Below are positions 1,695 to 59,279 of a stretch of 64,000 bases of DNA, one piece after another. The stretch lies in the IMG/VR virus record IMGVR_UViG_3300042389_001478, positions 32,001-96,000 of that record; one strand, 5' to 3'. Numbering within the stretch: position 1 is the first letter of the stretch; every line of letters starts with the position of its first letter. This stretch comes from a virus. The notes beneath the pieces were generated by a model that was given only the letters and a program-made list of their open reading frames with translations, was not told the DNA's origin and searched no databases. The translations under genes and the position numbers were made by a program.

Positions 1695-1726
1695 TATTAT
1701 TTATTAATAATAAAAGATAAAACAAA

Positions 1727-2197: not shown

Positions 2198-2208
2198 GAG
2201 AATAAATT

Positions 2209-3473: not shown

Positions 3474-3476
3474 TTT

Positions 3477-44500: not shown

Positions 44501-47500
44501 TGGTCAAGACTATCTTAATGAGAACGACCCTGCTACTACTCCAAATGAAAGAGCAGAATTCTTAGCATCTAATTTCGATGGTGCTTTATATACTACAGCA
44601 ACAGAAGCCCACAGACAACTTGGCGGATTAGCAAACTTTGGAGATATTCCTAATAGAGAATGGCTTATGGCTAGAGGTCAGGCAAAGATGCCCGATATGA
44701 AACCAGTAGTTAAACTTGCTACTGGTGGTATGGTTTATGCGTCTAATGGACAGTATGTTAATTTCCAACCAAGAGGAACTGATACTGTTCCTGCAATGTT
44801 AACGCCAGGAGAGTTCGTTGTTAATCGAAGTGCTACTCAACAAAATCTTCCGCTACTAAGAGCAATTAATAATGGAGCTGATGCTTATAGTATGGGCGGT
44901 GTAGTTTACGCTGCTGGAGGATTTGATCCTTCTCGAATGGCCCAAGGAGCATATCCGTCACAAAGTACTAGTCCTAAGCCATCAATGTGGAGTAGAATGT
45001 TTGGTGCTAGAAATCCTGGAGCTTTTAGACCACGCGGTATGTTTCCAACTTTTGGTGGTGCCGTCGGACATATGGAAAATGGGCTACACAAAGCTTTTGT
45101 TAGAACATCTGGATGGGCTGGTAGGCAGGTCGGAGATGTGGGGAGAGCATTTGGTAACATTGGACATGCTCCGATCAGACCAACTGCTATCCTTAATCAA
45201 TTAACCCAATGGCAGGCTGCGCAACAAGGGGCAATGTTTCCTGCCAGCACAAGTGGTGCTGCTTACCAGAGAATGCAGCAAAATGTACTTAAACAGCTGG
45301 CACAGTACAGTTCGGCTGCAACAAATTATAATGCTAGCAATACCCTATTAGCCAGAGCAGGAAGAGGAGCAACTAGTTTAGCCACTAAGGCCGTTGGAGG
45401 TACAGCAGCTTTCAACTCTGGAATTAATATATTGACTGAAGGATCAAGCGCTCTATATGGTTTTGGTAATGCTGCTTTAGGAGGACGTAATACATATGTA
45501 GATAGTAGACGAGAACAAGCTGCTCAAACCAATAATACTATTTTAGGAGGAGCAGCTACAGGATTTATGTCTCCAATTACCACTATGGCCCAGATGGGTT
45601 TTACTGTTGCTGAACTTAATGAAACTAGGAGAAGAGCTAGTAAAGGAGAAAGTTTAAATAGTGAAGGACGAAAGATATCTGTATCAAACATTGCTAATAG
45701 ACAATATTCTGGAGATGAAAGACATTTATCTGGATTAACAGCAGTAGAAGCTACTTATATTAGACAGATCATAAATTTAGAAAAAGCTTTAGCCAAAGAA
45801 AAAGTTGGGACTAAACGGTACGACCAGCTACAACAAAATTTAAATGATGCAAAATCTAGAAATGTTACAGAAAAAACTCGTGGTATGCTATGGGGTACCA
45901 CAAAAACTACTAGCAGAAAGGCCGGTCTTAGTAGTGGTGACGACGTATTAGACAAAGCTATTGATCAACATAGAGAATATGAGGTTAGATTAGAAGCACA
46001 AAGAGTTGCTCAGGCAGCTGCAGAAAAAGCAGAAGAAGCTAGACTAAAAGCTCAACAACAACAAGCTGAAGCTCAAAATAGAACAAGAGCTGCTGTTACG
46101 GTAGTGTCTAATGCTGGACAAGCAGCTTATAATTTTGGGGTCTCTATGTTTAATAAATTCAAAGAAGATAGAAAGAATGCTATAAATGCTGATAGATCTA
46201 AGAGAACAGCAGCAGCATCTCAGTATTTAGATAAGCCCGCAGTGCCAGATCTAATTAAAGATAGTCAAACTTTCAGAGACGAAAGACAAGCTGCTATCGA
46301 TGAAGTTCGTCGTTTGGATGGGGTTTATCAACAAGAGTCACAGCTAAATAAAAATAGAGGAGATAGCGAAGCAGAACTTAAACGATTAAAGGATTCATAC
46401 GACAAAGAACGAGAAGCCGCACTAGCAGCTGTTGCTAAAGTTGATAGTAAAATTATTGACAGAAATAAAGAAGCAGAAAAACTCAGCCCAGACGAAAGAC
46501 AAGCAGCATGGAAGTCATACAATGATAATCAAGCTAAAACAGCCAAAGATGAAGCATTAGCTCAAGCAAGATACCAAAGTAGAGTTGCTAAAACACAACT
46601 TAAAAAACAGGCCGACGGTCAATTGGCCATAGCAGAAATTACTAGAGTACCCAGACCAACAAAAGATATGAACCCTGAATCATTCTTTAGATGGTCAGAA
46701 AATGCTCGTAAGACATTAAATAGAAAATTCAAGCTGAGCGGAAATGATGAAAAAGACATGGCTATTTTAAGTGCTGCTGGATTATCTCCAGAAATAGCTA
46801 AAGAAGTTATCCAGCCTATCTCTAAAGAGAATAGCTCACTATTATTAGAAATGATGTCAACTAGCGGTAAATATAGTAAACAAGAACTAGGACTATTACA
46901 GCTTAGTGGAGATCAAATAGAACAGTTAACTAGAGCTAGCTCTGGTATGGGTGGCTCAGCCACCGCACAAATGACACTAGACGAAAGAAACAAAGTTCTG
47001 AAAAAACAAAGGGGCTTGGCAGTTAAAACTCAAAAGCAATTGAGTAGAATTGAAAAACAAATTGAGGCTGCTGAAAGACTTGGCCCAGAAGGAAGAATAC
47101 GTCGTCAATCCGCTATTCAACAACAACTATTAAGACAAGGATTAGTATCAGCATCTCAAGATGGTCCTGCTAATCAAGCTAGACTAGAACAATTAGGAAT
47201 GAATAAGGAAAGAGTTGGTTTCATATTCCAACAGCAAGGAAATCAACAAGGTGCTCCAGCAAATGGTATGAGTAACGGAGGAGTGGTTTATGCTGCTGGC
47301 GGAACATTGATTCCATATTCTCCAAGAGGAACCGACACTGTTCCTGCTATGCTAACGCCCGGAGAATTTGTTGTTAATGCTAAGGCCACAAGTCAAAATC
47401 TTCCATTGTTACAAAGTATTAATAAAAGTAGTGGAGGGGTAATTTATCGAGCGGAGGGTGGCGGAAGTGACGCTTTCTCTAACAGACAGCCGACCTCATC

Positions 47501-50500
47501 TGCAGAAAAATCAGGATCGATTAGAGCAACAGAATTAAATACTAGACTACAACAACAAATAGCTAATAATACAAAAAATACAGCCGATACTGTTCCAACT
47601 ATAGCAAAAATTACTAGTGAAACAGCAAATAAGCAAATACCGACATTATCTAATAAAACATCATCATTAGAACAAAATAATGCTAAGGCTTTTTCCAACA
47701 TAAATACAAAAGCTACAGATATTAATAAAATAACTTCAACTATTCCACAATTTGACAAAACAGCAAATGAAAAATTAGATGAATTATTAAGAAGAACTGA
47801 AGGGTTGCCAGAGACAGTTGCACAAATTGTTACTTTGATTATTGGGGATATACAACAGAGACAGCCTGGAGGTAATTTTGCAGGATTTGGGTTGAATCAA
47901 GGCCCTAATGCAATACAAGCAATAAATGATGCTATTAGAAATAGGTTTGATAATATTCTTAATGCTGCCGCTTTACAGATGGGCAGGGGCTTTAGTAGTG
48001 GAGGTATGGTCTATGCTTCAAATGGAATGATGATTCCTTATGAACCTAGAGGTACTGATACTGTTCCGGCGATGCTAACTCCGGGTGAGTTTGTGGTGAA
48101 CAGAGTTGCTACCCAAGCCAATTTACCTTTATTACAAGCTATTAATAAGAGTAAAGGTGGGAATATCAAAAAGCTTGCTGAGGGTGGAGTAGTTTATGCT
48201 GCTACTGGCGGAACAATGCCAACTAAACCAGACGGTTCTGCTGATACTAATTTTGATGCTCGCAAAGCTCAACGAAAAGCATCTTTAGAGAGACAGATTC
48301 GAACACAGGAAGAAAAAGAATTTAAGAAATTAGGTATCTTATACAATGATACCACAGACAAAGAAGATATCATACAAGCTCTTAAAAAACAAACTCAGCC
48401 TTATCCTTATCCTTTAAATATTGATTATTATCTAAGACAATTTAGTAGGGATAAAGCATTTGACATAGACCTAAAAAGATTTCCAAGAATTAGCGAAGCG
48501 GCAAAATCAATCTTAGCCAAACAAGAACAACCAAAAGCTAATCCTTTTGATATGGGTCAGCAACCAGCAGCAACTCCACAATCACTCTCAAGAGGTGGAG
48601 TAGTTTATGCTTCTGGTGGCGGAGAGATGACAAAAATTCCAGAGCCACCAATAGCTATGCCATTCGGATTTGCTCCACAAAAGGGATTTGCTGTTCCTTT
48701 GGATAAAACTAAGGCCATACAAGCACATCAACAATCAGAAAAATACCCTGATCCTTTTACTCCAGAAGCTGATAGGGCCTGGAGACAATTTGACTTGAGT
48801 CCAGTAGAAAGTATGGCGGATGATGCTCATGAATTTTTACAAGAAAAATTAGGAGGAAACAAACAAATTCCCCTTAATGGTCCACCCATGCCATTTGGTG
48901 TCGGTCCTAGAGCTAGGCATATGGATAACACTGTTGCTGGACAACTTCAAGGATTGTATTATTCGTTAATACCTGATAATACCAAAGGTGGTCAGGGTTT
49001 AGAAAATTATTTAGACCAATATAAAAATCATTTTGCTCCAAACGCACCATATGGGGCTCAGCCGATCTTACCAAATAAAGATTCGTTGATGCCTCAAATG
49101 AAAGCTAAGGGTGGAGTAGTTTATGCTCAAGAAGGATTTGATCCATCAAGACCATTAAATCCTATGATGAATCGTCAAGGAAAGGGTTCAGCTTCCACAT
49201 TAACCTCATCTCCAATTAGTAATTTTAATAATGAGAAGTTAGCTGAAGAAGGTAAAGCTTTTATGTACGGAGCTGCTAAGTCCGTACTTCCAGGTTTAGC
49301 TGGTTTGGGTGCTGGACTTTTAGGACTACCCACCACGGGTCCTGGTGGATTTGCTATTGGCTTAGGAGCAGGGACCGCAGTATATCAAGCTCAAGAAAAT
49401 TATTTGAATGCTTTTGCTCCAGAAACAAATAGACAGATGAAAGATATCACCGAGGAGCACTGGCAGGCTTCATTATTGGGATCTATAGCTAGTGGTTTTG
49501 GTGTTGATAAGGCGGGTCGTAAGCTACTCTCTCCTTTTATGAAAAATACTCTCAGAATGCCCGCCACACTTCCTAATAATAATGCTTCTGTAAGACCAGA
49601 TATTAAGAGTGCTAGTCAAGAAGCTATGGAGGAATTTTCTTTAAGAAGTAGACCAGCAGCTAGCGCCCCATTAGATGTACCAAAAGCTGATAAAGCTTTA
49701 CCGCTTCTTCGTAGTCTAGAAGAAAAGGGTGTTATAAAAACTACTCAATCATCATCAACATCTAAATTTAACAGTGATAACAGACGAGACCTATATCAGA
49801 TTGATCAAATTTTATATCACGGCACAGGACATACTATAGATGATATAGATCCATCCAAAGGCGGAGGTATATTAGGCGGTGGTTTCTATACTGGATTTGA
49901 AGGTCACGAAGGAATCGCTGCAAGATTTGCAGCAATGGGTAAAGCAAATAAGCATGTGTATCCAGTAAGAGTCAGTGGTGGTATAGGTGATTTTCCTGAG
50001 GCTACAGAAACTCTTGGCGGTAACTCTAAAATTTTATCAGTCATAGAAAAATTATTTACTGAACAGAACTTATCTAGACAAACTCGTCAGTTCTCAGGCA
50101 AATGGGGGAAAACAGGTCCTATTTATGACAACGTAGATTTAAATCTGAAAGACATGACATTCAAAGACGTTGTTGATTTGCTTAAGAATAGATATTCTGA
50201 AACCATAAAGAAAACTCTAGAGCAAGAAAATGGTATTTCTTTATCAAAAATATCGCCTCAAGAAATTGCTACAAGAGCAGATAAATTAGGTGAAGAACAG
50301 GTAAGACAACTATTGGTTAAAGCTGGTATACCAGGAGCCAAAGATACAACAGGAAAATTATCGGGTACTGGCGAACCTATGGTCTCCATATATGATCAAA
50401 GCAGGCTAAGCAAAGAAGGAAAACCTTTTGTTCCAAATAGTTTGAAACCCCAGATGAAAGCCAATGGTGGTGTAATTTATGCTCAAGATGGTATGAGAAT

Positions 50501-53279
50501 CCCGTTTAATTTAAATGATATTGCTGATAAAAATCCAGCAAAAGTGGGATACTCAACATCAGCAGAAGAACGATATATGGAAAGATGGAAGAAAACACAT
50601 ACCGACTTACTAGCAGACCCGTCAGAAGGTCCTGGTATGTTGGGTGCTCCGTTTCATGAAAGATTTTCAGCTGGCTTAAATATGCTTGCTGATATTGGTT
50701 CAGCAAAAATGGCTGGAGCAAAAGCTACAGGAGCAAGAGGTCAAAAATTTGCTAGTGTGCCAAGATCAGGCAGATCCATGAGGAAACCACCGACCTCTAT
50801 AGTGAAACCAAGTGCTCCTTCTGTAGGAGATCTTAAAGCTCTGCAATATAGTCAAGAAAATATACCAAATTTATTAGGAGATGGAGAGAGACCATTATTT
50901 AGTAAAGATTTTCCAAAAACCGTTAAACCAAAAGATATTGAAGCAAAATTAGCCCAAGATAGAACTGAAATAGAAAGTATAGCAAAATTACTCTCTGAAA
51001 GACTAGGAAGACCGGTTGATCCAGTGGAAGCTAAGGATATGTTAGTTAAAAGAATGACTGATATGATGATTGAAGCTAAGTCTGGCGAAGATAATATGAA
51101 AGGTAGAACTGTTGATAGTAAAACATTTATAATATCTTCTTCACAAGGAAGAACTAATCGAGCTTTTGTAGAAGCGTCTCCTAAAGCATCATTATTACGC
51201 AAAATAGCCTCAAAACTATCTTTTGGTAAAATAGATAGATTATCTCCAAAACAACAATTAGATAGAGACGAACTATTTGCCATACAACGAATACAGAGTT
51301 ATATGTATGATCAGTTACATCCTGAAAGAATGGGTGGTTTAATTATTCCTTCTCGTAAACTATCTTTTGCTGAAGCTTATGATGAAATAGATTCATTACA
51401 ACCAGGAAAATATGGTTATTTCAAAGGGCTAACTGAACCCGGAGGCAAAGCATTAAAAAATCTTCTATCCAGCGGAAGAATAGATAAAGAAACATTGATG
51501 ACTCAACGTAAACAAGTATCAGATAAGTTAATATCTGAAGGTAAATTAGATCCACAAGATCTACCAGAAGCAAGAATGGCGGAAGACCCCACAAAATCTC
51601 AAATGATAATGCAGAGAGTAAACAGAAATTCTGATATGATAATTAGATATCAAGGAAATGATGTCAGATTAAATCCAGATATTTTAAAATTAGCAGATAA
51701 AGGTGTCTACCAGTCACCCGTAACCACAAATGATCCACAACAACAAATATACCCTACATCTCCATTAGATTTTTATCAGAAATTTATGGCTCCACAGAAT
51801 AAATCATCTGGTGGTGTAATTTATGCTTCAACAGGAACATTAGTAAATTATCAGCCTCGTGGCACCGACACAGTACCCGCAATGCTTACGCCCGGTGAGT
51901 TTGTTGTAAACAGAGCCTCTACTCAAAAACACCTTCCACTATTACAATCTATTAATAGTGGGAACTATGAAAATGGCGGAATAGTATCATACTATCGAAG
52001 AGGTGGTCGTATTACTGCAGCAGAACTAGCATCAAATAGAAGAGAATATTTAGATCGCAAAAAAGCAGAGAAAAAGCAAAGAGATGATGATAAAAAAGCT
52101 AGAGAAGATAATTTTGCAGCAGCACGACAACAACAGATTGAAGACCGTAGAGCTAGATCTACAAGTGGCATCTCTGTGCAAACCAGGGGCGGGTCCTATG
52201 CTCGATCTGCAATGAGTTCTAGTCAAGCACAACCAAACCAACCACAACAAACAGCACAGAGCACCATAGCACAAGCTATTATCAATGTGGCTCAAGCAGC
52301 TATAAATATTGCAAATGCTACTACTAGTTCTAGCTCCTCTAATAATAATCAAACCGGCACTCCGTCTTATATGACTAGTAGTATTAATGGACCAAGAACT
52401 CAACGAACTCAGGATTTCTTTGAAGCTAGAAGAATAAATAGAAACAGCAGAGAACAAGAAGAGAATGACAGAACATTATATAGAAGAAGAAATCGCAGGC
52501 CATCAGACACAACAGCTTATAGTAATGCTTTAGCTAGTAGAAATACTCCCGTGGCTGCTAATAATCAAAATTCCCCAGCACAAAATAGCATATTCGGTAA
52601 CTTGCTACAAGCCATACAAAGCATGTTTGGATCGGCCCAAACAGCAACGAGAGGTGCACAGAATCAACAAACTGGAACACCAAGATATCTAACAAGCTCT
52701 ATCAATACTCCCGGCGTTCAGCGAACACAAGAATTCTTTGAGATGAGAAGAATTAACCAAGAAGCTCAACAGGCTGAAAGAGACAGAAGAAATCAAAGAG
52801 CTGCAGTGGCACAAGCGGCCAATAGTCCAAATGTTCCATCTGGCCAAAATCCAGCACAAAATAATAACATATGGACAGTATTAAATAATAATGCTCTCCA
52901 ATTTAGTAATGCTTTAAATACAGCTACCACCGCTTTAAACACAGCCTCCGCCGCGATACAGCAATATAATCAACAATTGGCTGGTGGTGTATCTAATAAA
53001 GGAAACCCTGATAAAACCAATCTTGATGGAATTAGCCTATTTACAAGCACATTCCAATCATTTATTGATCAATTGAAAAATATTAATCCGGTAATAAATA
53101 TGAGAGGAAATCATACAGTAACAGTAAATTTCGGTTCTGGTGCAGATGTTTTTGCAAGAATGGAAGGAAGAGTTAAGGAGTTTGTTATTGATCAAATTAA
53201 TGCCGGATTAAATAATGTAAATACTACACTAAGAGATAGCACCGAAGGCTCTATTGATAATGTTCGAAATTTAGCTTAA
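32580..53279 (+). CDS. 6,899-aa tape measure protein carrying multiple enzymatic cargo domains (polyvalent TMP)
   Basis: TP901/PhageMin_Tail-like core (FIEYDQQLTRISQVTG...TRESAETIATGLRTIFTRI, about 33450-34300). Second long helical region with hydrophobic segments. Repeated GTDTVPAMLTPGEFVVN motifs. Canonical position after the tube and chaperone genes. RBS GAGGA. Confidence 0.92.
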   Translation: MAKGFNLTAEINLRGPSNIRSVVADIKRQVGSVSVDVSPTLNRASVRTIANDIRRQIGNLSAEINVRANAGSIRNLSRDIRQRLGTLTADVQVRADASSIRRSVANIRSQFRNISTNVAVSASPSSIRQASSAIRRQLGNINANVRVNVSAGSVRQAAANIRRQLGSINTTVNVGINAASLRGIGAYTANLTRLNATLAQTTITATNAAGAIATLTAAMGAAGRVNLGQINVNLGNAGNAARNTANNIQLAGNEIENFGRQAGLAIRRFAAFSVVTGVVFGITNAFKNGVSAFIEYDQQLTRISQVTGDAKESLGKINSTISELSTSLGVSSKELAATSVTLAQAGLTARDTETALKALALSALAPSFDDMNQTVEGSIALMRQFGISSKELEGSLGSINAVAAKFAVEASDIITAIQRTGGVFAAAGKGVSEGTNALNEFIAVFTSIRATTRESAETIATGLRTIFTRIQRADTIEALKEFGVTLTDLEGKFVGPYIAVQRLSEGLSKLDPRDLSFSRIVEELGGFRQIGKVLPLIQQFATAQDALRVAQQGQGSLSADAAKGQMALAIQIAKVREEFLALIRSVGNTDSFQNMVKVGLDLASALIKVADAAKGLIPLVGLFAAFRGAQAITQFAGGFGRGFRGAPTQRASEGGPIRHFASGGYVPGFGNGDTVSAKLTPGEFVMSKPAVRSIGVGNLSRMNKGDRASKFDKGGPVTVSALLTRSGGPSIRNAINTTNLEPDDTVSINIVPKQVPLNQTDFLNIWLRGNSSAKKGTGKFKNYAGINVSQENRDRLKNLAGKNTKQQQEIKRGYGAGISEQVSMLQSAEGRWGLAYEEFLINKLRANWTKASSKNNYPVDLVQKLTNNSIKRIGEVKFRTTPTEDIDLISKLLRYRIERGSINRYFRENEEIPKDLDKNIGSLDYFWAGNYKKQFYKFIEERQKIQAPGFVRAAAGGQIQRFPRGGNVQKLANVGVTKEKKQTNINETAAQALLEQNAGKSPVIRRILSKPKAGRDFAQILKKQGVTIPPFPKFVGSGMANAVFDIGNKKMLKVSLTGFGDNMMAGNFFGENVAEKMGMTGNYQLPMGVPGVAGYSSHIDAGVLSSAIQDKAVMKIKGRSKNKDANELIKRLRKQEGLTGIDLHNDNIGYRYNPKTKKQEPAIIDGLVVHDDKLPPGFDFSNRFKIGGEVQRFPIGGEVRRTKKERYKKISVADAEKLSASQIITGLTTGQSAPARVGGMDVVTMRKILGQRNRTPDDQRKRDEILNAYTRRINGEVDQRLGVTKQRQTAGLLFGIAGLYGSPFAPTDMVVGDKGELTKPTTVQVMGGVPRKKLMDRANLSINDLDIYGKDFKKSVKKGAKRLLVSDILSQLGLGKALYADFDRTLVFGADDLPDIQSFNDKRKVGRQLLSKKARLSVLGQKLRDLLVAKPQLTPSVKILTARPRSTLGLLQAFLRRQNLNIPSSQFTGVGGNNLNEAAIAKLKAAELPSGSVLVDDNAKNIRAAELKSKALKAQGEAGITTFRYKSARSPLDKPGEDTAAGLAFQESLRGLLSEKRAVAAFAETGGKSIDFPLGLGRRAALFGLKPNIPTDAKRTLTGPSTAKENITNYLKARSYSAGGDIQKFPQGGTPSPGGHSSNIVPALVSTGEAYFPPEEAKNIGLDKLRKMNQADRNGMKSFARGGVSVFRGPGSGTSDSIGPIGLPVGSFIVRAAATKALGLSSGGSVGNVQKFAAGGAAQRLFVGGLLNPPPAARPDLGGMNDSEARRVVGVVNSVNQQLGQLAGVLEELGVASGDTARLMQRGSQATYAQAIQATEADIRRARIAGASAQQIAAAESVLRDIRQQADRDIRARRASVDTPGGARASLGSLGGQDLQRIDSRADQLRQQMMETERNRLQNQTVTRGGRTTARYSNEQVEERLQRRAGRFNRQSYEQATTQVTGGRVDLGAVGLTGDDAQRYIQQSMRDRNTLAQMDRAYIPRRAAQIRQQLEAERGVGATARERAALARQALRMAEQEARDRANTARAAARAAGAAGPGGGPESGMARSMGMAFGLQMVGSLLAQQINPESSSSNAQISAGLQGGTNMLATGTMIGSGVMEMFPAMTRLLGPITILTTVALAAGQALIDARNAAIEFEKKLADKRVQDAMERVGQGFDKLSKNIKDIKIQDDITNNLIEASRNVRKSVEADKTTAKAFWANITDVFTSNTSSNLAEAAQNVYNSKPAAGRTDADRNALAAVTINTQAAAASRSKILEKEGVSAYLSTTSMGQFLSGAGSQSSSRAEERRSSLSLGMIPETAREDSKKYVEVAQSMQRIIEDKLRSGLSVRELLTAPKHEFEQIARTMAMADQATHANILAIQQDTNLTTAEKEAKIKNIATLYAEDKIRKSAKSVDTEKASKNFEKNINNMSRSLERMFQNMDQAIERTSFSLRQMSQDMDLISASLGGQAKTGDTSLKSMNILQNPRAYGGLETNAARDQASSFFTGERNLVKGLLSVGDNLETSIMSSINKTLTDNPAASNEQIGINIEKQVTKQIAKLQLPPDVGNKLGEQVKTALDEMRKRGDENLNFDDLMEKIPGLSKVLESGKRAQESALKALEHWQSSLNSYSEKINQLIDLQIDTNERLRRSSELVIRGNMEVSRALGKDVSVSSVRSARNVGIAQQTGGLTDADAIAKNIMSLEGQRRSLESSANSAGNRGLAGANDFVKFKSGLLDTNVALRENIAALKSLAENGDVASAALGKIQEAQQKQASKVGFIEKLVTSTPEEVNSLERAMARLQNNINGQLNTINNSVGAQKAYNDAIAQGATNAEAMSAAQVAFAGERKETLGALNDLLPFLSNNQQGNNIKANVLESMARESGVGINPMMQEVINSLRNPQADPQTQAAMQQYQQAISEQARANTLLAQLNSTLANDIATKSAAALSQALTGASIKFQSSQLDDIAKNVRSISLRGGDQPVPAAGKANGGMIYAAAGTMVNFQPKGTDTVPAMLTPGEFVVNRAATSRNLPLLQSINSGGYSKGGSVNYYSSGGYVSSVFKSEYLDSKNLENSEKQYIDPEDKIIKDIISGDDKPFMIRSGWKNFTRLQSPANQYHSAQFKKTYVGRVGGYFGFGLDETNDKIPFETSGKLVPGSAPIIDINSIDGEYVYKNTPPPNLWPAGNRELGYLLSDRKFNTKNIAKNDLSKYRDIINGLISVVPPGRVWGTDPSSFEFSSPDDLSGGQSGFPYNPNLSSAKPVGLILSRGATDIGQQATESTDGIQKIFNNSRAFTGQSEEASDRAGNTTRIYGDIQGTVSAGKLTNAAKLAQRGFINDVPTDNDTFKWITETKKISELRDTQKENLSLLKNTTTDIFGNKINWLKNTEKNNKLISLQQKLQKIYEGGSLIEDLDVSERELIDNTQLRLDDASGKFSLLSKQLEPQLAKRVAELSSRPIDQQLPKDKENARIATLTRIGGAAGWADGDPFPINFSENGLTKPTVSFPWIANIEPEFFLQNIKEQQEQQAKDRASGKDYGFNISSLGLQPYAAKLPAPLDKVSFNYKAAYTKYSGRLFDLRQKELDNTRPLNDAFIIDPKHDDALNIFKNANFPDKSFFTGFPGPYQPQDLAKRISVKDPQSILDYMQALRNNDPNADALAGKINGVSLALGPALLKVMNDKPLYLPDDLYYGIDNTFQNLDISPFVVASAKDAAGQLGRLAKEKSSQINTPGSKTQSISEADLGPTVQRIAQASLGIFGRRPGIPSGYLYSQFGRALSNISDPIKAKNTASGISGVFSNLVKQIHGMAPRNSREFAALRDSNILATGASAVFNKLASGSTNYIKSFLGGGSSIENLFRSLGSGSFFNEMGSQQFSEDFTKQLGADLKGSKLAKIGADGSIDLTDMNEQDVPKNYQGLVDLAINPYHEFGNRSVRQGIFQKLMTDIPNFRANHNVTDPKTGTILEKRQTQLPLFGPAALKMIMTNLNNLSQWYGGNGAWAGQDYLNENDPATTPNERAEFLASNFDGALYTTATEAHRQLGGLANFGDIPNREWLMARGQAKMPDMKPVVKLATGGMVYASNGQYVNFQPRGTDTVPAMLTPGEFVVNRSATQQNLPLLRAINNGADAYSMGGVVYAAGGFDPSRMAQGAYPSQSTSPKPSMWSRMFGARNPGAFRPRGMFPTFGGAVGHMENGLHKAFVRTSGWAGRQVGDVGRAFGNIGHAPIRPTAILNQLTQWQAAQQGAMFPASTSGAAYQRMQQNVLKQLAQYSSAATNYNASNTLLARAGRGATSLATKAVGGTAAFNSGINILTEGSSALYGFGNAALGGRNTYVDSRREQAAQTNNTILGGAATGFMSPITTMAQMGFTVAELNETRRRASKGESLNSEGRKISVSNIANRQYSGDERHLSGLTAVEATYIRQIINLEKALAKEKVGTKRYDQLQQNLNDAKSRNVTEKTRGMLWGTTKTTSRKAGLSSGDDVLDKAIDQHREYEVRLEAQRVAQAAAEKAEEARLKAQQQQAEAQNRTRAAVTVVSNAGQAAYNFGVSMFNKFKEDRKNAINADRSKRTAAASQYLDKPAVPDLIKDSQTFRDERQAAIDEVRRLDGVYQQESQLNKNRGDSEAELKRLKDSYDKEREAALAAVAKVDSKIIDRNKEAEKLSPDERQAAWKSYNDNQAKTAKDEALAQARYQSRVAKTQLKKQADGQLAIAEITRVPRPTKDMNPESFFRWSENARKTLNRKFKLSGNDEKDMAILSAAGLSPEIAKEVIQPISKENSSLLLEMMSTSGKYSKQELGLLQLSGDQIEQLTRASSGMGGSATAQMTLDERNKVLKKQRGLAVKTQKQLSRIEKQIEAAERLGPEGRIRRQSAIQQQLLRQGLVSASQDGPANQARLEQLGMNKERVGFIFQQQGNQQGAPANGMSNGGVVYAAGGTLIPYSPRGTDTVPAMLTPGEFVVNAKATSQNLPLLQSINKSSGGVIYRAEGGGSDAFSNRQPTSSAEKSGSIRATELNTRLQQQIANNTKNTADTVPTIAKITSETANKQIPTLSNKTSSLEQNNAKAFSNINTKATDINKITSTIPQFDKTANEKLDELLRRTEGLPETVAQIVTLIIGDIQQRQPGGNFAGFGLNQGPNAIQAINDAIRNRFDNILNAAALQMGRGFSSGGMVYASNGMMIPYEPRGTDTVPAMLTPGEFVVNRVATQANLPLLQAINKSKGGNIKKLAEGGVVYAATGGTMPTKPDGSADTNFDARKAQRKASLERQIRTQEEKEFKKLGILYNDTTDKEDIIQALKKQTQPYPYPLNIDYYLRQFSRDKAFDIDLKRFPRISEAAKSILAKQEQPKANPFDMGQQPAATPQSLSRGGVVYASGGGEMTKIPEPPIAMPFGFAPQKGFAVPLDKTKAIQAHQQSEKYPDPFTPEADRAWRQFDLSPVESMADDAHEFLQEKLGGNKQIPLNGPPMPFGVGPRARHMDNTVAGQLQGLYYSLIPDNTKGGQGLENYLDQYKNHFAPNAPYGAQPILPNKDSLMPQMKAKGGVVYAQEGFDPSRPLNPMMNRQGKGSASTLTSSPISNFNNEKLAEEGKAFMYGAAKSVLPGLAGLGAGLLGLPTTGPGGFAIGLGAGTAVYQAQENYLNAFAPETNRQMKDITEEHWQASLLGSIASGFGVDKAGRKLLSPFMKNTLRMPATLPNNNASVRPDIKSASQEAMEEFSLRSRPAASAPLDVPKADKALPLLRSLEEKGVIKTTQSSSTSKFNSDNRRDLYQIDQILYHGTGHTIDDIDPSKGGGILGGGFYTGFEGHEGIAARFAAMGKANKHVYPVRVSGGIGDFPEATETLGGNSKILSVIEKLFTEQNLSRQTRQFSGKWGKTGPIYDNVDLNLKDMTFKDVVDLLKNRYSETIKKTLEQENGISLSKISPQEIATRADKLGEEQVRQLLVKAGIPGAKDTTGKLSGTGEPMVSIYDQSRLSKEGKPFVPNSLKPQMKANGGVIYAQDGMRIPFNLNDIADKNPAKVGYSTSAEERYMERWKKTHTDLLADPSEGPGMLGAPFHERFSAGLNMLADIGSAKMAGAKATGARGQKFASVPRSGRSMRKPPTSIVKPSAPSVGDLKALQYSQENIPNLLGDGERPLFSKDFPKTVKPKDIEAKLAQDRTEIESIAKLLSERLGRPVDPVEAKDMLVKRMTDMMIEAKSGEDNMKGRTVDSKTFIISSSQGRTNRAFVEASPKASLLRKIASKLSFGKIDRLSPKQQLDRDELFAIQRIQSYMYDQLHPERMGGLIIPSRKLSFAEAYDEIDSLQPGKYGYFKGLTEPGGKALKNLLSSGRIDKETLMTQRKQVSDKLISEGKLDPQDLPEARMAEDPTKSQMIMQRVNRNSDMIIRYQGNDVRLNPDILKLADKGVYQSPVTTNDPQQQIYPTSPLDFYQKFMAPQNKSSGGVIYASTGTLVNYQPRGTDTVPAMLTPGEFVVNRASTQKHLPLLQSINSGNYENGGIVSYYRRGGRITAAELASNRREYLDRKKAEKKQRDDDKKAREDNFAAARQQQIEDRRARSTSGISVQTRGGSYARSAMSSSQAQPNQPQQTAQSTIAQAIINVAQAAINIANATTSSSSSNNNQTGTPSYMTSSINGPRTQRTQDFFEARRINRNSREQEENDRTLYRRRNRRPSDTTAYSNALASRNTPVAANNQNSPAQNSIFGNLLQAIQSMFGSAQTATRGAQNQQTGTPRYLTSSINTPGVQRTQEFFEMRRINQEAQQAERDRRNQRAAVAQAANSPNVPSGQNPAQNNNIWTVLNNNALQFSNALNTATTALNTASAAIQQYNQQLAGGVSNKGNPDKTNLDGISLFTSTFQSFIDQLKNINPVINMRGNHTVTVNFGSGADVFARMEGRVKEFVIDQINAGLNNVNTTLRDSTEGSIDNVRNLA
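32637..33122 (+). repeat. Six 27-aa (81-nt) tandem repeats at the TMP N-terminus
   Basis: Consensus RxxxxxIRRQLGxIxxxVxVxxxxxS(I/V/L), repeated six times in exact register. Confidence 0.9.
35040..35420 (+). other. PD-(D/E)xK nuclease-like domain 1 within the TMP
   Basis: GLAYEEFL (E837)...YPVDL (D860)...IGEVKF (E875, K877). Confidence 0.6.
35670..36110 (+). other. Protein-kinase-like domain within the TMP
   Basis: VGSGMANAVF (Gly loop, G1036), MLKV (K1053), IQDKA hinge, DLHNDNIG (D1142, N1147), IIDG (D1165). Confidence 0.75.
36705..37110 (+). other. HAD-superfamily phosphatase domain within the TMP
   Basis: Motif I LYADFDRTL (D1381, D1383), motif II KILTAR (T1441), motif III Lys (AKLK), motif IV VLVDDN (D1496). 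Confidence 0.8.
37190..37425 (+). other. PD-(D/E)xK nuclease-like domain 2 within the TMP
   Basis: GLAFQESL (E1547)...SIDFP (D1571)...PTDAKRT (D1592, K1594). Confidence 0.55.
41532..51911 (+). repeat. Five exact protein-level copies of GTDTVPAMLTPGEFVVN within an extended ~55-aa repeat
   Basis: Copies start at 41532, 44775, 47328, 48051 and 51861. Each is preceded by GGxxYAxxG and followed by xxATxxNLPLLxxIN (variants in some copies). Degenerate copies at about 34560-34650, 37480-37535 and 37610-37715. Confidence 0.95.
49800..50400 (+). other. ADP-ribosyltransferase-like domain within the TMP
   Basis: LYHGT (H5747), LGGGFY (Y5770), IAARFA, HVYPVRV, then LLVKAGIPG...GEPMVSIYD (E5932). Confidence 0.7.
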
Positions 53280-53295
53280 AACAAGGTATACTATA

Positions 53296-56200
53296 ATGAA
53301 TGAAACAATTTCTGGTACATTGCTTATTGGCTCCGGACTCACTCCAGACATCAGACTATCTGAAACATCTGGAATAGCCACAAGCTTTAATAATAATAAG
53401 AAAAATATTGATTTTAGTATATCAGGAACAGGAAATAATGGCCTAATTTATTTTGATGCTTCTACTGGTCGTTTAGGAGTAGGCACCGGATTACCAGATG
53501 CTGTTCTTCATATTGTTGCTCCGTGCGCCAAAGATGGACTTATTGTTGAGAGTGTTACAAATTGCCCCACTGGCGTAACCCTACTATTAGTACACAACCC
53601 ACAAACTGCTCCACAAAGCGGTAGTTATCCAGCTATTATTAATTTAGCCGGAAGAGACACCAACTATGAAGAAATAGCTTATGGCCAGATAATGTCCCGC
53701 ATACTAGATCCAATTACTGGATTTACTAGTGGCGAACTAATTTTCACAGTTGATGAAACTGGAGTTAATAAACCAATTTTTGTTGGTAATCTACAAAGCA
53801 TAGTTCTTGGCGGAAGAAATCAAATATCTGGATCTAACTATGAAGTAATTGGAAGTACAAACTCAATCACTGGAGTTGGCTTTACTAATATAGGATCTTA
53901 TAATAGTGGATTGTCTACTAGTGGTATTTTAATTGGTAATTTAAATTATGTTAACGGTATTAAAACTTTAGCATTAATTAATAGTGCTAGTATAGTGGGC
54001 AATAACAACATTGGAATGGGTGATCAGATAAAAATTTCTGGGTTGTCTAATGTATTGGTCGGCAATAATAATAGCTTGTCTGGATCACAGAACGTGCTAT
54101 TAGGAGGAAATAACGATTTATTAGCAAGCTACTCAGTAGGCTTGGCTCAATATTCCGTATCTTCTGGAATTTCTGGCATAGCTCTTGGTTCATATATTAA
54201 TAATACTGGTGACTATAATATTTACATAGGTAATCTTAATAGCTTATCGGGTAATAACAATAGTATAGTAGGTTCGTACGTAAGCCTCACCGGAACCAAC
54301 ACTGTTGTTTATGGAAGTTCTGATAATATTTCTGGTAATAGTTTAATAGTCATTGGATCTAATCAGTCAGTGATTAATGTTAATAGTGGTATTTTTATTG
54401 GAAATAATATAACCAGTGAAGATTCATATCGAAGTGTTATTGTTGGATTAGGCAATGCTATTCAAAGCGGTTTGCAAGATAGTATTCTTGTTGGTATTAA
54501 TAACAATCTGTCCAATGGAAATCCAAGCAGCCTGCTTTTGGTAGGACAAGCTAACGTTACTAAAGATATTACAGGATCATTGGTTGTTGGCAATACTAAT
54601 AATTTAAGTGGAACAGTATCTAATAACTTAGTATTGGGTAGTATCAATGCTGTTCCGTCCACAAGCAACAACAACCTAGTGCTTGGAGTACTAAATAACC
54701 AAACTGGGGTTTATATCGATTCAGCTGGTTCTATATATGGAACTCCCAGAAGAACTAATGGCTCAGTAAATAATTCCATAGTTGCTGGTGTCCATAACAT
54801 TATTTCTAATGGTAATGCCGATATTCTTTTAGGTAATAAAAATTCGGTATCAGGATCAAATGCAAATATCTTAGGGTCATACAATAATCTTAAAAATTCT
54901 TCTAACACATATAATGTTGGTAATTCTAACTTTATTGTTGGAGATAAGGTTGGAACACTAGGAAGTAAAATATCTGTAATAGGTCAAGAGTCTGTAGTAT
55001 TTAATACTGCAGATCGTAAAATGGATGTTTTTGGTAGTGGTAATATCGTTATTGGTCATAACGCAGCCGTATCAAGCGGTATTATAGTCGGCACATCAAA
55101 CAAAGCCCATGGAACTAATAATATTATTTATGGTAAAAATAATACAGTTGGTTCCATACGCCACCAATTTACTACGAATAGCCCATTTGCTAATAGTGTT
55201 ACTATTGGTTCGCTGAACGTTGCTAACAAATACACTATAGGAGATACGGTACTAATTTATGTTCAAAATCCTCCTTCTATAACTAATACATTCGTTCGAG
55301 AAATTCAGGACATTGTTGAAGATATAGATACAACGACTATTACGTTCACTACTTCTATTAGTATGGATAGTAGTAATGGCTATTATTCTATTAATCAGGC
55401 TTTCGATGATAATAATTCTCCATCACCTTCCATAAGCGGATTAATTATGCCATACCAGCAAGGTGGTGGCATTGGTGGTCCAGAAACAAATCCCACCTAT
55501 GGTTCTGATAATATCATCGTTGGATCTAATAATAACTATATTTTTAGTAGCGGCGTTGTTATTGGAAATAATAATACTGTTTCTGGGGTTAAAAATGTTG
55601 TTATCGGATATGGCATGAGTGGGGTAGCCAATAATACATTATATGTGGGAACTAATAATAACAATAAAATTATTTTAGACAACGATAAAACAGTATTTAA
55701 CTCAGGTTCAGTACAAGATAATTTCATTATTAAATCTAGTAGTGATAATACCTCTGTAGTTAATATGGATTTAAATAGTAATTATTTTGGTATTAATACC
55801 GACAACCCCACGGCTGCACTCTCGGTCAGTGGACTAACGAGCACATCCACCGTAAGAATAGGTTTTTCTGCACCAGATCAATATGTTTTAACTACAAACG
55901 TCAATGGCTATGGCACATGGCAGCTTCCGGTCAGAATATCTGGAACCGATAATGGATTAATGTATAGAGTAAATAATAAGGTTGCTAGTGGTATTACTGA
56001 AGTTCAGTATGATCCAACAACATCTACAATGGGCTTTAATCTTGATGGGGCCAATGGTTTTTATATCACTTCATCTGGACTATTAGTCAATGACGAAGGT
56101 AATACTTATGGCATTAGGGTACGAGGAAGCGGAGGATCAGATTTCGCCAGAACCTTGCTTCAAACAAATTTTGGTAGAAATAGAATTGACTTTTTTAATA

Positions 56201-57648
56201 TAAGTGGCAATTCTGGTAATTTTAATAATTTCTCTGTTGGTAGTGGAATGATTTTGCCAGTTAGCTTAACTGGTACATTTTTATATGTTAATAATTCTGG
56301 TAATCTAACAAGCTTTGGCTCTAGGGCTTATAGTATACTATTTTCTAATGCTAATTCATGGGCTACTGGTAACACTAGCTATAGATGGATTGATAATCAA
56401 TCTACATTAGTGATGGGGTCTACCGGCGTTGTGTCCTATGATGTTTTAGCTACTAGTACTAATGACACAAGATACAACATATTATTAAGCTCCAATAAAG
56501 ACATAGATACCGTATTTAATAATTTGGGTTTGGGTAATAAATTTTCTGTCATCAATTCTGGACAATTAAACACCAGACGTGGATTACACATCAATCCCGC
56601 TAGCGGACAGGTTGCGATCAACGTTATTCCTGATACTTATGCCGGAATAGCAAGTCAATCGCATTTGTATGTTGAGGGTAAAACACACACCCAGTCATTA
56701 AGAATAGGGAATAATAGTATTTCTGGACTATATCTCAGAGTAGATAATAGTGGCAATGTTTTTTCTAGCCTATTAGATCTCAAGACCCAATTTAGTGGAT
56801 TGTGGCCGTTTTCTGTTACAACAACCTCTTTGGGCGGCAGTGATACTTTTAGGGTTGATCTTGGGCTATCCAATCAAGATAGGTCAAATTTTAGTATGGT
56901 CGGAGTGTCTGGTGATGGCCGGTTCTTAGTTTTTGACTCAACTAAGTGGGACTTATCTAATAGTTTGAAAGTGCCTCAATCAACATGGGTTACTAACAAC
57001 ACTGGTCCTGTTCTCAGGACTCTCAGAGGTATTGAATTTGGATACAGGCCCAAAATTAATTACACATACCACAGCCACGTTTTTGCATCAAGTTCTTTCT
57101 TAGATTCATCATCTTTGTATGATGGATCATCTCAGTTCTCCCAATATTACCTAAGATCCCGCACAGTAGGCAACGACATAGCTGAACTTACTACAGACTG
57201 GGGTAAAAATAGCAGTAATGACGTAAGCCAATATAATACCATTAGTTTAAAAAACACAAATGGTTATGATTATGATAATGTATGGAACTATAAGATTTTT
57301 GTATCAGTAATTTGGCAAGATGGTACCACCACACAAACCGTTACTGGTCCAAAATCTGCTGCTGGCATGACTATTGAAGGATGTGTTTTTAGATCAGCAG
57401 ATGGAGGAATATTCACTAAACTAGGCAAGGAGAATATTAATGTGTATGCTACTGGTATTGGAGCAGTTGGGATGCCTGCTGGTATGGGTATTGCAACATA
57501 CATAGACAATGATGCTAATCAAACATTAATGCCTCGATTAGCTATTCAAGCCACAGGAGTTGCTGGAAAAACGACATTATGGAGCGCCTCTGCTCAGATT
57601 AATCAATTAAATCACCCTGCTGGATCTAATTTATTCGGAAATACTTAG
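53296..57648 (+). CDS. 1,450-aa tail fibre/spike with long beta-helix (IGxxN repeats)
   Basis: GRLGVGTGLPDAVLHI and FGINTDNPTAALSV fibre motifs. About 450 aa of regular (I/V)(I/V)GxxNx(I/L)xG repeats at 53790-55150, resuming at about 55500. Confidence 0.8.
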   Translation: MNETISGTLLIGSGLTPDIRLSETSGIATSFNNNKKNIDFSISGTGNNGLIYFDASTGRLGVGTGLPDAVLHIVAPCAKDGLIVESVTNCPTGVTLLLVHNPQTAPQSGSYPAIINLAGRDTNYEEIAYGQIMSRILDPITGFTSGELIFTVDETGVNKPIFVGNLQSIVLGGRNQISGSNYEVIGSTNSITGVGFTNIGSYNSGLSTSGILIGNLNYVNGIKTLALINSASIVGNNNIGMGDQIKISGLSNVLVGNNNSLSGSQNVLLGGNNDLLASYSVGLAQYSVSSGISGIALGSYINNTGDYNIYIGNLNSLSGNNNSIVGSYVSLTGTNTVVYGSSDNISGNSLIVIGSNQSVINVNSGIFIGNNITSEDSYRSVIVGLGNAIQSGLQDSILVGINNNLSNGNPSSLLLVGQANVTKDITGSLVVGNTNNLSGTVSNNLVLGSINAVPSTSNNNLVLGVLNNQTGVYIDSAGSIYGTPRRTNGSVNNSIVAGVHNIISNGNADILLGNKNSVSGSNANILGSYNNLKNSSNTYNVGNSNFIVGDKVGTLGSKISVIGQESVVFNTADRKMDVFGSGNIVIGHNAAVSSGIIVGTSNKAHGTNNIIYGKNNTVGSIRHQFTTNSPFANSVTIGSLNVANKYTIGDTVLIYVQNPPSITNTFVREIQDIVEDIDTTTITFTTSISMDSSNGYYSINQAFDDNNSPSPSISGLIMPYQQGGGIGGPETNPTYGSDNIIVGSNNNYIFSSGVVIGNNNTVSGVKNVVIGYGMSGVANNTLYVGTNNNNKIILDNDKTVFNSGSVQDNFIIKSSSDNTSVVNMDLNSNYFGINTDNPTAALSVSGLTSTSTVRIGFSAPDQYVLTTNVNGYGTWQLPVRISGTDNGLMYRVNNKVASGITEVQYDPTTSTMGFNLDGANGFYITSSGLLVNDEGNTYGIRVRGSGGSDFARTLLQTNFGRNRIDFFNISGNSGNFNNFSVGSGMILPVSLTGTFLYVNNSGNLTSFGSRAYSILFSNANSWATGNTSYRWIDNQSTLVMGSTGVVSYDVLATSTNDTRYNILLSSNKDIDTVFNNLGLGNKFSVINSGQLNTRRGLHINPASGQVAINVIPDTYAGIASQSHLYVEGKTHTQSLRIGNNSISGLYLRVDNSGNVFSSLLDLKTQFSGLWPFSVTTTSLGGSDTFRVDLGLSNQDRSNFSMVGVSGDGRFLVFDSTKWDLSNSLKVPQSTWVTNNTGPVLRTLRGIEFGYRPKINYTYHSHVFASSSFLDSSSLYDGSSQFSQYYLRSRTVGNDIAELTTDWGKNSSNDVSQYNTISLKNTNGYDYDNVWNYKIFVSVIWQDGTTTQTVTGPKSAAGMTIEGCVFRSADGGIFTKLGKENINVYATGIGAVGMPAGMGIATYIDNDANQTLMPRLAIQATGVAGKTTLWSASAQINQLNHPAGSNLFGNT

Positions 57649-57673
57649 GACTTTTTAATTTAGGAAATTATTT

Positions 57674-59263
57674 ATGGCAAATGGAGCTTATATAAAATAC
57701 GGAAACTTTAGTTTTCTTGCTAATAGTGGATATCCAATTCCATCAATAAGCATATCTCAAGAATACCAAAGAGATGGAGCTGGCCGCCAGATAGGAGCTA
57801 CTGTTTCTATTGCTTTAGAAGGAAAGATTTATAGTGGTAGTGGAGATAAAGGTTTTTCTCATTTACTTACTAAAGAAAGCGGTTTAAGACAAGCTTTTAG
57901 TTATGATGGTAATAACTTTGTTGTTGGGTGTAGTGATGGAACTCAAACCACCTTTAGTGGTATAAAAGTTTCTCGATACAATGCTAGTAAAACCGAAAAT
58001 AATTGGACAACCACTATAGACTATAGTATTGATTTACAATCAGAAGTAGCAAATACTGGTAGCGGTATTTTCAACGTTACTAGCACTCAAGATGATTGGA
58101 GCATAGAAACGATTGATGAATTTTCATATTCACGATCTCCAGTAAGCATGAGCCTTTTGGGTTTTGGATCTAATTTTCAGTTTCCACAAGGAAAAAATTA
58201 TCCTTTTTATAGAATCAGTCGCACAATAGGAGCAGTTGGTAAGTTTATACCAACAAGCGGCTCTGGTGGCAACGTATCTCTTACTGGTATCAATACCGCA
58301 GTCTCTAACGCTAAAAACTGGGTTAATTATCATCTTCCACTAAATCCAACCTATTCTGGTATTATTAAAAGTTTATCTTTGTATAATTTTGTTAGAAATG
58401 TCAATAGTAGTGAAATTGAAGGCTCTTATAGAATAACAGATAATTGGATAGCTATTCCTAGTGGGTTAAGTGGGCTATACACCGAAAGCTTTAATATTGA
58501 AAGCTCATTAGACTCTTCATTAATGAGAACCGTAACCCTCAATGGTACTGTGAAAGGATTAGAGCTATTTAATAGTGGTAATTATAATAATTCATCACTA
58601 GATAATTTATCTAATAATATTAAATTAACAAGTAATGGTTCTACAAAATTTGATAACGCCATTAGCGGATACTCCTCTGTTAAAAACTTGCTATATGGTA
58701 GAGCACAGACTTTTATGGTTAGCGGCAGTGCTGCGACGGCAACCTTTTATGGTGGACTCGGAAGTGTTGTCGCCGGACAATTTGCTAATAGAACCGAAAG
58801 TCCTTTGAACCCTATTCCAGTAAGCGCTACCGAAGGGTTTAATCCAGCAGAAGGAAGCATAACATATAGTTGGTCTTTTAATAATCGTCCTATGAACATT
58901 ATTAGCGGAGCTATTAGCGAAACATTAACCGTTGATGATACATTTCCAACACAAGTAGTAGGAAGTATTTATGTGCTTGGTAGAAGATTAGGACCAGTTT
59001 TACAGGATATCGGCACAGTAACTTCTTATAGTAGATCGGTTACGATGGAAGTGGTTTTCCCCAAACCATCTAGTCTTAGAAATATAACATTTCCTGGAGA
59101 TGCTTATAGATCTATAACAGGAATAATCGATTCGTTAGATCCTAAAAATCTATATGCTGACGGAATACGATCATTTGTTAAGCAAAATAGTGAAAACTGG
59201 AATGCAACCGAAGGAAGATTTACCAAGACTAAAGCGTGGGAATATACAAGATGCATCTACTAA
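57674..59263 (+). CDS. Probable distal-tail (Dit-like) protein with repeated tube-like beta modules
   Basis: 529 aa downstream of the TMP. Repeated pattern of a beta strand followed by (R/V)xxTxxGxxKG / xSxxxGAVGK-like hairpins, which resembles tail-tube-fold repeats. The assignment is by position and pattern. Confidence 0.5.
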   Translation: MANGAYIKYGNFSFLANSGYPIPSISISQEYQRDGAGRQIGATVSIALEGKIYSGSGDKGFSHLLTKESGLRQAFSYDGNNFVVGCSDGTQTTFSGIKVSRYNASKTENNWTTTIDYSIDLQSEVANTGSGIFNVTSTQDDWSIETIDEFSYSRSPVSMSLLGFGSNFQFPQGKNYPFYRISRTIGAVGKFIPTSGSGGNVSLTGINTAVSNAKNWVNYHLPLNPTYSGIIKSLSLYNFVRNVNSSEIEGSYRITDNWIAIPSGLSGLYTESFNIESSLDSSLMRTVTLNGTVKGLELFNSGNYNNSSLDNLSNNIKLTSNGSTKFDNAISGYSSVKNLLYGRAQTFMVSGSAATATFYGGLGSVVAGQFANRTESPLNPIPVSATEGFNPAEGSITYSWSFNNRPMNIISGAISETLTVDDTFPTQVVGSIYVLGRRLGPVLQDIGTVTSYSRSVTMEVVFPKPSSLRNITFPGDAYRSITGIIDSLDPKNLYADGIRSFVKQNSENWNATEGRFTKTKAWEYTRCIY

Positions 59264-59279
59264 TTAGCTAGAGGAAATA

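Follow-up and report, generated by a model that had tools for sequence, protein, structure and literature searches.

The DNA analysed here (the window) is a 64,000-base stretch, bases 32001 to 96000, of the 192,497-base record of an uncultured phage, IMG/VR virus record IMGVR_UViG_3300042389_001478. It contains a single open reading frame (ORF) of 6,899 amino acids (aa) at window positions 32580 to 53279 (+ strand), the predicted product of which is a phage tail tape measure protein, and which holds an exchangeable cassette at positions 49104 to 50507 (+ strand, residues 5509 to 5976). This cassette consists of a linker, a glycine-rich hairpin, a connector, a domain resembling ADP-ribosyltransferases (ARTs) and a second linker, and is best described as a putative cargo cassette with an ART-PolyVal-like domain, the catalytic activity of which is unproven. 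Profile comparisons identify the ART-like domain, of 224 residues (residues 5734 to 5957; 49779 to 50450, + strand), as a remote relative, with an insertion, of the ART-PolyVal (Tox-ART-HYD2) domains found in phage polyvalent proteins. The cassette is kept as a unit among giant tape measure proteins that have otherwise diverged, and is bounded by recurrent copies of a GG-x-V-Y-A linker.

The tape measure assignment comes from a match of residues 320 to 512 to the Pfam family PF10145, PhageMin_Tail (E 1.2e-24, 87.8 bits against a cut-off of 33.2), and from matches of the N-terminal half to six PHROG tape measure families (phrog_28, 167, 4211, 4704, 1272 and 1533, with E from 3.4e-24 to 2.2e-11). 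It agrees with a first-pass annotation of the window, which had also placed a toxin-like cassette, a glycine-zipper membrane segment followed by an ART, at 49260 to 50450. That interval is stop-free in frame 1, and the strings quoted in the annotation are all present, in frame, in the one ORF (YHGT at residue 5746, GGGFY at 5766, GIPG at 5916 and GEPMVSIYD at 5931 for the ART-like domain), with H5747 and E5932 correctly numbered. The gene-caller version of the same ORF, P0012, has 6,681 aa.

The ART-like domain falls into three parts. The N-terminal half (49803 to 49979, + strand) holds the putative pocket for nicotinamide adenine dinucleotide (NAD+), with Y5746-H5747-G5748 on strand 1, G-F-Y5770 on strand 2, a helix with A5780 and A5784, and V-Y-P-V-R-V as strand 3; it carries the profile-profile match described below and, in the relatives, sub-threshold matches to PF18760 and PF13151. 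It is followed by an insertion of ~97 residues (5802 to 5898; 49983 to 50273, + strand) made of helices plus a beta-hairpin, which appears as a gap in the hhalign alignment, is absent or far shorter in ART-PolyVal and differs in length among the family members aligned here. The C-terminal half (50274 to 50423, + strand) comprises a helix with R5909, a G-I-P5918-G strand, which pairs with GYDG of ART-PolyVal, and an M5934-V-S-I-Y-D5939 strand, which pairs with E-Y-V-A-F.

A full search of 1.84 billion representative proteins (HMMER, E <= 0.001) returned eight proteins, seven of which are credible relatives: P0003 (7,872 aa), P0004, P0005, P0006 (5,532 aa), P0007, P0008 (5,078 aa) and P0009. P0008 corresponds to locus L002, on a 230-kb viral contig. 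The eighth protein, P0010 (E 4.2e-6, seven short stretches), was dropped as a family member, its match being a 66-residue low-complexity stretch limited to query residues 164 to 229. All seven relatives carry tape-measure-type linkers, and three of them share the tape measure N-terminal core, at 60-65% identity. The window's module and those of the seven relatives form alignment A1, of eight modules with 29-40% overall identity.

The ART-like family is rare. A further search among larger proteins found again P0007 and P0009 only, a near-length search gave a 138-aa fragment, P0011, and P0003 came back, along with the window's own protein, from a region search with the giant protein. None of these searches, each limited by its length window and word seeding, gave a standalone form of the domain. 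Among 50,697 phage records, tblastn gave no match with the window's module (E <= 0.01) or with the P0008 module (E <= 5), and megablast of window positions 45000 to 53279 against the phage records gave no match either. In viral contigs the single protein found no relative and the alignment found one locus, L002. Similarly, none of 221 pattern matches was confirmed in metagenome contigs searched with the alignment, and none of 102 in species-genome contigs searched with the single module.

The kinship with ART-PolyVal was assessed by comparing A1, using hhalign, with an alignment of ten true ART-PolyVal domains (A2), taken from two bacterial genomes (both above the Pfam cut-off), four phages (F116, a crAss-like phage, Tunturi_5 and vB_PaeM_USP_25) and four plasmids. 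The two alignments matched with a probability of 88.9% (E 2.4e-6, score 44.4) over 50 columns. Column-shuffled templates (n=100) gave a mean score of 11.6 and a maximum of 20.3, none of the 100 reaching the real score, and the ART-like motifs are therefore more than a chance resemblance. A permissive setting extended the match, in colinear order and past the long insert, as far as the C-terminus (123 columns, at low mact), and the C-terminal profile pieces alone scored 17.1 (E 0.002), a value that none of 100 shuffles reached (maximum 11.8). The features aligned extend beyond the YHG and GxGxY motifs to a hydrophobic-x-x-hydrophobic-D turn, an A..Y helix, a G-hydrophobic-x-G strand and a Y/F-x-P-x-[QR]-I stretch. 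One alternative to be weighed is that the domain has no ART fold at all, YHG and GxGxY having arisen by convergence in an alpha/beta domain that serves as a tape measure spacer; two separate segments that match ART-PolyVal in order, each above 100 of 100 shuffles, and the extension of the likeness past the two motifs argue against it.

Two further approaches converged on the same family. In a protein-language-model Atlas the window's domain had ART-PolyVal clusters at the top (0.93, 190 of 256 features, 16 of 30 hits), with a recognition value of 2163, a little under the tool's mark of 2300; the P0007 module, which is 34% identical to the window's, also placed ART-PolyVal clusters at the top (0.90, 17 of 30 hits). 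When an AlphaFold model of the domain was searched against BFVD with Foldseek, four of the top 18 rows were named ART-PolyVal and two were named 'large polyvalent protein associated domain'. The first-ranked row, which is unnamed, was the only one at E <= 0.001 (E 1.7e-5), the named rows having E from 5.6e-3 to 0.2, and the TM-scores were low, from 0.15 to 0.37. The agreement between two divergent Atlas queries, and the naming of the same family in BFVD, likewise speak against convergence.

Several results count against an ART-derived fold and favour the convergent spacer. Every match to an ART family by sequence lies under its curated cut-off: PF18760, the ART-PolyVal family, was matched at sub-threshold level by four of the eight A1 members and DUF3990 by three, and the best PF18760 match, that of the P0008 module, covers the part from YHG to GxGxY only and scored 23.2 bits (E 1.3e-4) against a gathering cut-off of 31.2, so that neither the window's module nor any relative is a Pfam member of the family. 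Residues 5734 to 5957 gave no Pfam match at E <= 1 and no PHROG match, and PF18760 searched against the six-frame translation of the genome gave nothing at E <= 10. The hhalign probability itself is short of 95%. Sequence searches of the PDB with the single protein or the profile yielded chance-level rows only (a thiolase at E 0.57, a reductase at E 0.16). AlphaFold reached a predicted local distance difference test score (pLDDT) of 37 from the single sequence, and of 66, with a predicted template modelling score of 0.65, from the eight rows of A1. In this second model domain residues 1 to 46, the His/Tyr half, are below 50, the sole confident part is the insertion (pLDDT 80-90 over domain residues 70 to 190), and the C-terminal strands lie at domain residues 186 to 189 and 201 to 204. 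The ART core was not built in either model, and Foldseek of the model against the PDB gave nothing at E <= 0.001. The fold is therefore drawn from sequence profiles only. The ART-PolyVal profile itself found only tankyrases in the PDB, at E 0.35-0.6, and there is therefore no solved close relative on which the domain could be modelled. Taking both sides together, we regard an ART-derived fold of residues 5734 to 5957 as highly probable and a convergent spacer domain as improbable. The ART assignment made by the first-pass annotation thus stands as a kinship with ART-PolyVal, though not as membership of a Pfam ART family and not as a modelled ART core.

The active site is where the window's family departs most from its relatives. 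According to the accessible text of Iyer et al. 2017 (PMC5512222), the ARTs of polyvalent proteins have a His on strand 1, a Tyr on strand 2 and an Asp on strand 5, and group with Tox-ART-HYD2. Y13, H14, G15, Y37, A47 and A51 of A1 (the first four being Y5746, H5747, G5748 and Y5770 of the window protein) are invariant in all eight members; H5747, in the Y-H-G-[TS] context of strand 1, aligns with H13-G14 of the ten true ART-PolyVal members, and Y5770 aligns with the [YFW] column of strand 2. The acids of the family are replaced. The D of GYDG, the only invariant acid of A2 (10/10), aligns with P5918, a column with P in six members, A in one and R in one; this pairing of GYDG with G-I-P5918-G has low per-column confidence in the hhalign alignment. 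The last-strand acid of A2 (E in nine, Q in one) aligns with M5934, an invariant Met. The C-terminal invariants of A1 are instead R176 (R5909), I184, G186, M201 (M5934) and D206 (D5939), and its only invariant acids are D5757, at a position that is D in five of ten ART-PolyVal members, and D5939. As read from these alignments, the ART-like family keeps the presumed nicotinamide-side residues and appears to have lost both family acids, and it is therefore not filed as an ordinary ART-PolyVal member. No match to PF03496, PF01129 or any other ART family was found in the window protein by Pfam, and in place of the motifs of the R-S-E type (Arg, Ser-Thr-Ser and Glu-x-Glu) the module has the His/Tyr motifs.

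The first-pass annotation had read the domain as a toxin-type ART of the canonical H-Y-E kind, in which H5747 and E5932 are catalytic and ahead of which lies a pre-toxin-like transmembrane segment. YHGT and GFY do resemble the H-Y-E clade, as in diphtheria toxin and poly(ADP-ribose) polymerases (PARPs), and E5932 lies two residues ahead of the last strand. However, across the eight A1 members the E5932 column is made up of E, E, S, Q, G, G, E and G, so that the residue is present in three of them, two of which are near-identical, and the acids of the ART-PolyVal family align with P5918 and M5934 rather than with E5932. The polymorphic-toxin layout fared no better: the domain is internal, ending 942 residues short of the C-terminus of the tape measure protein, and the Pfam scan matched neither a pre-toxin nor a toxin family (an immunity gene was not searched for). 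A canonical H-Y-E toxin is thus very improbable, and the catalytic role given to E5932 is not supported by the family alignment.

A more serious alternative is an ART-derived pseudoenzyme, in which the fold and the His/Tyr pocket would be kept for binding (of NAD+, of an ADP-ribose-derived signal or of a host protein) or for structure, and no transfer would take place. The replacement of both ART-PolyVal acids in all eight members, by P, A or R and by an invariant M, and the absence of any invariant acid other than D5757 and D5939 are what such a protein would be expected to show. However, Y-H-G and the Tyr are strictly conserved at 29-40% overall identity, which argues for a ligand pocket under selection. 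Moreover, PARPs with H-Y-hydrophobic triads are active mono-ARTs, and the loss of the acids would not by itself mean inactivity. PARP10 and other PARPs of this type resemble the window's family in keeping the His and the Tyr and in having no acid at the third triad position; they differ in being eukaryotic, and outside the clan motifs their sequences show no detectable relation to it. Tape measure proteins are present in few copies per virion, and an enzyme is therefore more plausible than a stoichiometric binder. A pseudoenzyme is, in our judgement, somewhat unlikely; that the domain is actually catalytic is itself doubtful, if slightly less so.

The limits of the cassette are given by its comparison with P0003. 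Residues 5509 to 5976 align as one 468-aa BLASTP block with residues 5111 to 5577 of P0003 at 87.8% identity; the edges of this block coincide with two linkers, and the adjoining flanks match P0003 through repeated linker modules only. A bounded cassette between the MKAKGG and MKANGG linkers, as first annotated, is thereby borne out. Elsewhere, residues 1 to 968 of the window protein are 52.5% identical to residues 1 to 915 of P0003, 1187 to 1629 are 82% identical to 1108 to 1550, 1614 to 3243 are 44% identical to 1833 to 3351, and 3481 to 4114 are 32% identical to 3615 to 4256 (BLASTP), with repeat-to-repeat matches only between these backbone blocks.

A second site of exchange lies near the N-terminus. 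Residues 969 to 1186 of the window protein (35484 to 36137) are occupied by a kinase-like module, and the same slot in P0003, residues 916 to 1107, is filled by another ART-like copy (residues 917 to 1111), which shares 30% identity with the window's module. As the blocks flanking this slot are 52% and 82% identical, one cassette has taken the place of another in a slot that stays fixed. The ART-like modules of P0006 and P0008 lie near the same N-terminal position, at residues 829 to 1029. In P0013, a related giant tape measure protein from L002 (4924 to 5565, P0013 residues 1485 to 1698), an extra module between two GG linkers matches ADPrib_exo_Tox, PF03496, just below threshold (22.9 bits against a cut-off of 23.4, E 5.9e-5) and has STS- and ExE-like motifs; it would be a second ART, of the R-S-E type. 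No ADPrib_exo_Tox-like module was found in the window protein by the Pfam scan. The swapping of enzyme-like modules between fixed, linker-bounded slots is as expected of cargo and not of a ruler. The GC content of the cassette (0.37-0.41) is the same as that of its flanks, and its composition therefore gives no sign of foreign origin.

The glycine-zipper-like hydrophobic hairpin of the cassette (residues 5568 to 5605; 49281 to 49394, + strand) is a run of 38 uncharged residues that includes LPGLAGLG at residue 5570. It contains 11 Gly (29%, against 8.8% protein-wide), three GxxxG motifs and eight small-xxx-small pairs, and consists of two arms of ~13 residues on either side of a PTTGPGG turn. 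Its mean hydropathy is the highest among the nine uncharged runs of at least 28 residues in the protein, and its Kyte-Doolittle maximum over 13 residues is 1.82. A hairpin was found upstream of the ART-like domain in four of nine module instances (those of the window, P0003 copy 2, P0007 and P0009). The same Gly and Pro positions recur in P0003, P0007 and P0009, where the homologous segments (copy 2 in P0003) reach hydropathy values of 1.57-1.65, and the shared pattern indicates that the hairpin is a conserved element and not a product of drift. The hairpin is not an obligatory partner of the ART-like domain: a linker directly adjoins the domain, without a hairpin, in P0006, P0008 and P0003 copy 1, and the sequence upstream of the domain in P0004 resembles, by eye, the kinase-like module. 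The connector between hairpin and domain (residues 5606 to 5733; 49395 to 49778, + strand) was delimited from an alignment of the four hairpin-bearing instances, and its first ~40 residues are conserved (QE-x-YL...AP..N.....IT-x-E). Of the glycine-zipper membrane segment first proposed, a conserved, Gly-rich hydrophobic segment is thus retained; its composition and its layout in two arms agree with a glycine-zipper 2TM-type hairpin, no Pfam glycine-zipper family was matched at E <= 1 over 49260 to 50450, and membrane association of the hairpin is a prediction.

The explanation that we slightly favour is that the region is a cargo cassette of a modular tape measure protein, in which a hairpin and an ART-PolyVal-like, NAD+-using domain are delivered to the host; delivery as cargo, taken alone, is reasonably probable. 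The tape measure protein would leave the tail at infection and enter the host envelope, in agreement with the expulsion of tape measure proteins into the envelope described in the accessible text of PMC7824862. The cassette would travel with it, probably unfolded, and the hairpin may associate with the cytoplasmic membrane, helping the cassette to sit in it or to cross it. The domain would then refold and bind NAD+ through its His/Tyr pocket, and ADP-ribose might be passed to a host target by a non-canonical, substrate-assisted chemistry such as that of the H-Y-hydrophobic mono-ART PARPs; alternatively, the last step may be consumption of NAD+. This scenario has to be set against the following points: delivery, NAD+ binding and activity are proposals, a folded domain of ~25 kDa is unlikely to fit the lumen of a tail tube, and the hydropathy of the hairpin over 19 residues peaks at 1.36, under the level of a classical transmembrane helix and exceeded by three classical hydrophobic windows of the same protein (residues 262 to 287, 602 to 625 and 2104 to 2129). 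A bolder version, which is speculative and improbable as a whole, would see the tape measure protein as a 'train' of interchangeable host-directed effectors (H-Y ART-like, kinase-like and, in relatives, R-S-E ART), with the GG linkers as the joints at which recombination, and perhaps processing, takes place, the hairpin as a translocation device that brings the adjacent ART-like domain through the cytoplasmic membrane, and the H-Y-Pro/Met domain as an active NAD+-using enzyme with a chemistry or a target class new for ARTs.

Tape measure proteins with peptidoglycan-hydrolase motifs exist, and several known systems resemble parts of the one described here. The likeness to ART-PolyVal (PF18760; PMC5512222) begins with a [VL]-Y-H-G-[TS] strand, a hydrophobic-x-x-hydrophobic-D turn, a G-hydrophobic-Y strand, an A..Y helix and a third strand, and continues through a variable insert, a helix, a G-hydrophobic-x-G strand and a last strand followed by x-P-x-[QR]-I. 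Both occur in giant multidomain phage proteins predicted to enter the host, and more than one copy per protein is possible, P0003 having two. The window's family differs in having Pro, Ala or Arg for the strand-5 Asp and Met for the last-strand Glu, in Pfam scores under the cut-off and in its tape measure carrier, and the window's domain in its ~97-residue insert. According to PMC5512222 the ART-PolyVal domains are predicted to act as enzymes that are injected and modify the host, and T4 Alt is an ART that is carried in the virion and acts on the host as soon as infection starts; Alt, however, is a proven enzyme of the R-S-E clade and a separate head protein, whereas the window's module is predicted, of the H-Y type and part of the tail ruler. 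Among the relatives of the window protein, P0013 does have a near-threshold PF03496 module. Sle1, reported in 2026, belongs to modular effectors of contractile injection systems that are related to tape measure proteins, according to the accessible text of PMC13277306, and has in common with the window protein that a tape-measure scaffold carries, in modular form, exchangeable domains to a membrane or target cell; it differs in being part of an intracellular phage-tail-like particle of Streptomyces with unrelated functional domains, whereas the carrier here is a tape measure protein proper, from a phage, and holds many cassettes.

In the literature no tape measure protein with an ART-PolyVal-like domain was found, although supplements and the external architecture lists of PMC5512222 could hold one; the main text of that article has 0 occurrences of the term 'tape measure'. 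The idea of an injected ART and the related fold are already known, and what is new is the tape measure carrier, the cassette partner and the altered active site. The current view is that polyvalent proteins enter the host by injection from the phage head, and the finding, if true, would extend this idea to the tail ruler: one protein would measure the tail, form the entry conduit and carry changeable host-modifying modules. The family is also a natural test of an ART pocket that lacks both acids and has invariant His and Tyr, with substrate-assisted transfer, NAD+ hydrolysis or ligand binding as the possible outcomes. The sharp cassette edges and the slot swapping with a kinase-like module mark out definite limits for expressing this part of an uncultured phage in another host.

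The linkers that bound the cassette belong to a repeated series. The upstream one (MKAKGG followed by VVYAQEG; 49098 to 49136, + strand) is a truncated copy of the GG-x-[VI]-Y-A module and begins at residue 5507 (49098), 162 bases upstream of the start first annotated, 49260. The downstream one (MKANGG followed by VIYAQDG; 50454 to 50492, + strand) begins at residue 5959 (50454), just past the end first annotated, 50450, and lies close to the end of the 88% block. The full linker module, GG-x-[VI]-Y-A and then TDTVPAMLTPGEFVVN, is present in five copies of ~55 residues each, at residues 2986, 4067, 4918, 5159 and 6429 (window positions 41535, 44778, 47331, 48054 and 51864) and ending with that same sequence. 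An older-looking variant, GG-x-[VIL]-x-[KRHY]-[FLA], is present in seven copies, five within the first 1,650 residues and two at residues 4952 and 5193. In contigs from one genome per species, 88 relatives of the full module were confirmed in the tape measure proteins of prophages from many bacterial phyla, and the module is therefore a general tape measure element and not specific to the cassette. Directly after the cassette, at 50493 to 50760 (residues ~5972 to 6060), lies a module that starts with MRIPF and has AEERYMERW and a Gly/Ala-rich stretch; it follows the cassette in the window protein but precedes the ART-like domain in P0005.

The immediate neighbours of the tape measure ORF on either side are orphans with zero family matches. 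Downstream, from 53296 to 63998, there are three large ORFs (1,450 aa, 529 aa and more than 1,573 aa) with no Pfam or PHROG match at E <= 0.001. The genes upstream carry tail-fibre-type domains (Laminin_G_3, fn3, collagen and Mtd_N). Among them, a 311-aa protein (25368 to 26303) with an Mtd_N domain, the N-terminal domain of the major tropism determinant, and a phage-tail-repeat match is predicted to be a receptor binder of the tail-fibre type. A second giant ORF, of 4,221 aa (6103 to 18768), has as its sole Pfam match a He_PIG Ig-like domain (residues 1243 to 1337) and presumably encodes a fibre or decoration protein. Finally, positions 2589 to 4394 hold two paralogous neighbours, of 294 and 305 aa, with Gly_rich_2 domains (PF21722).

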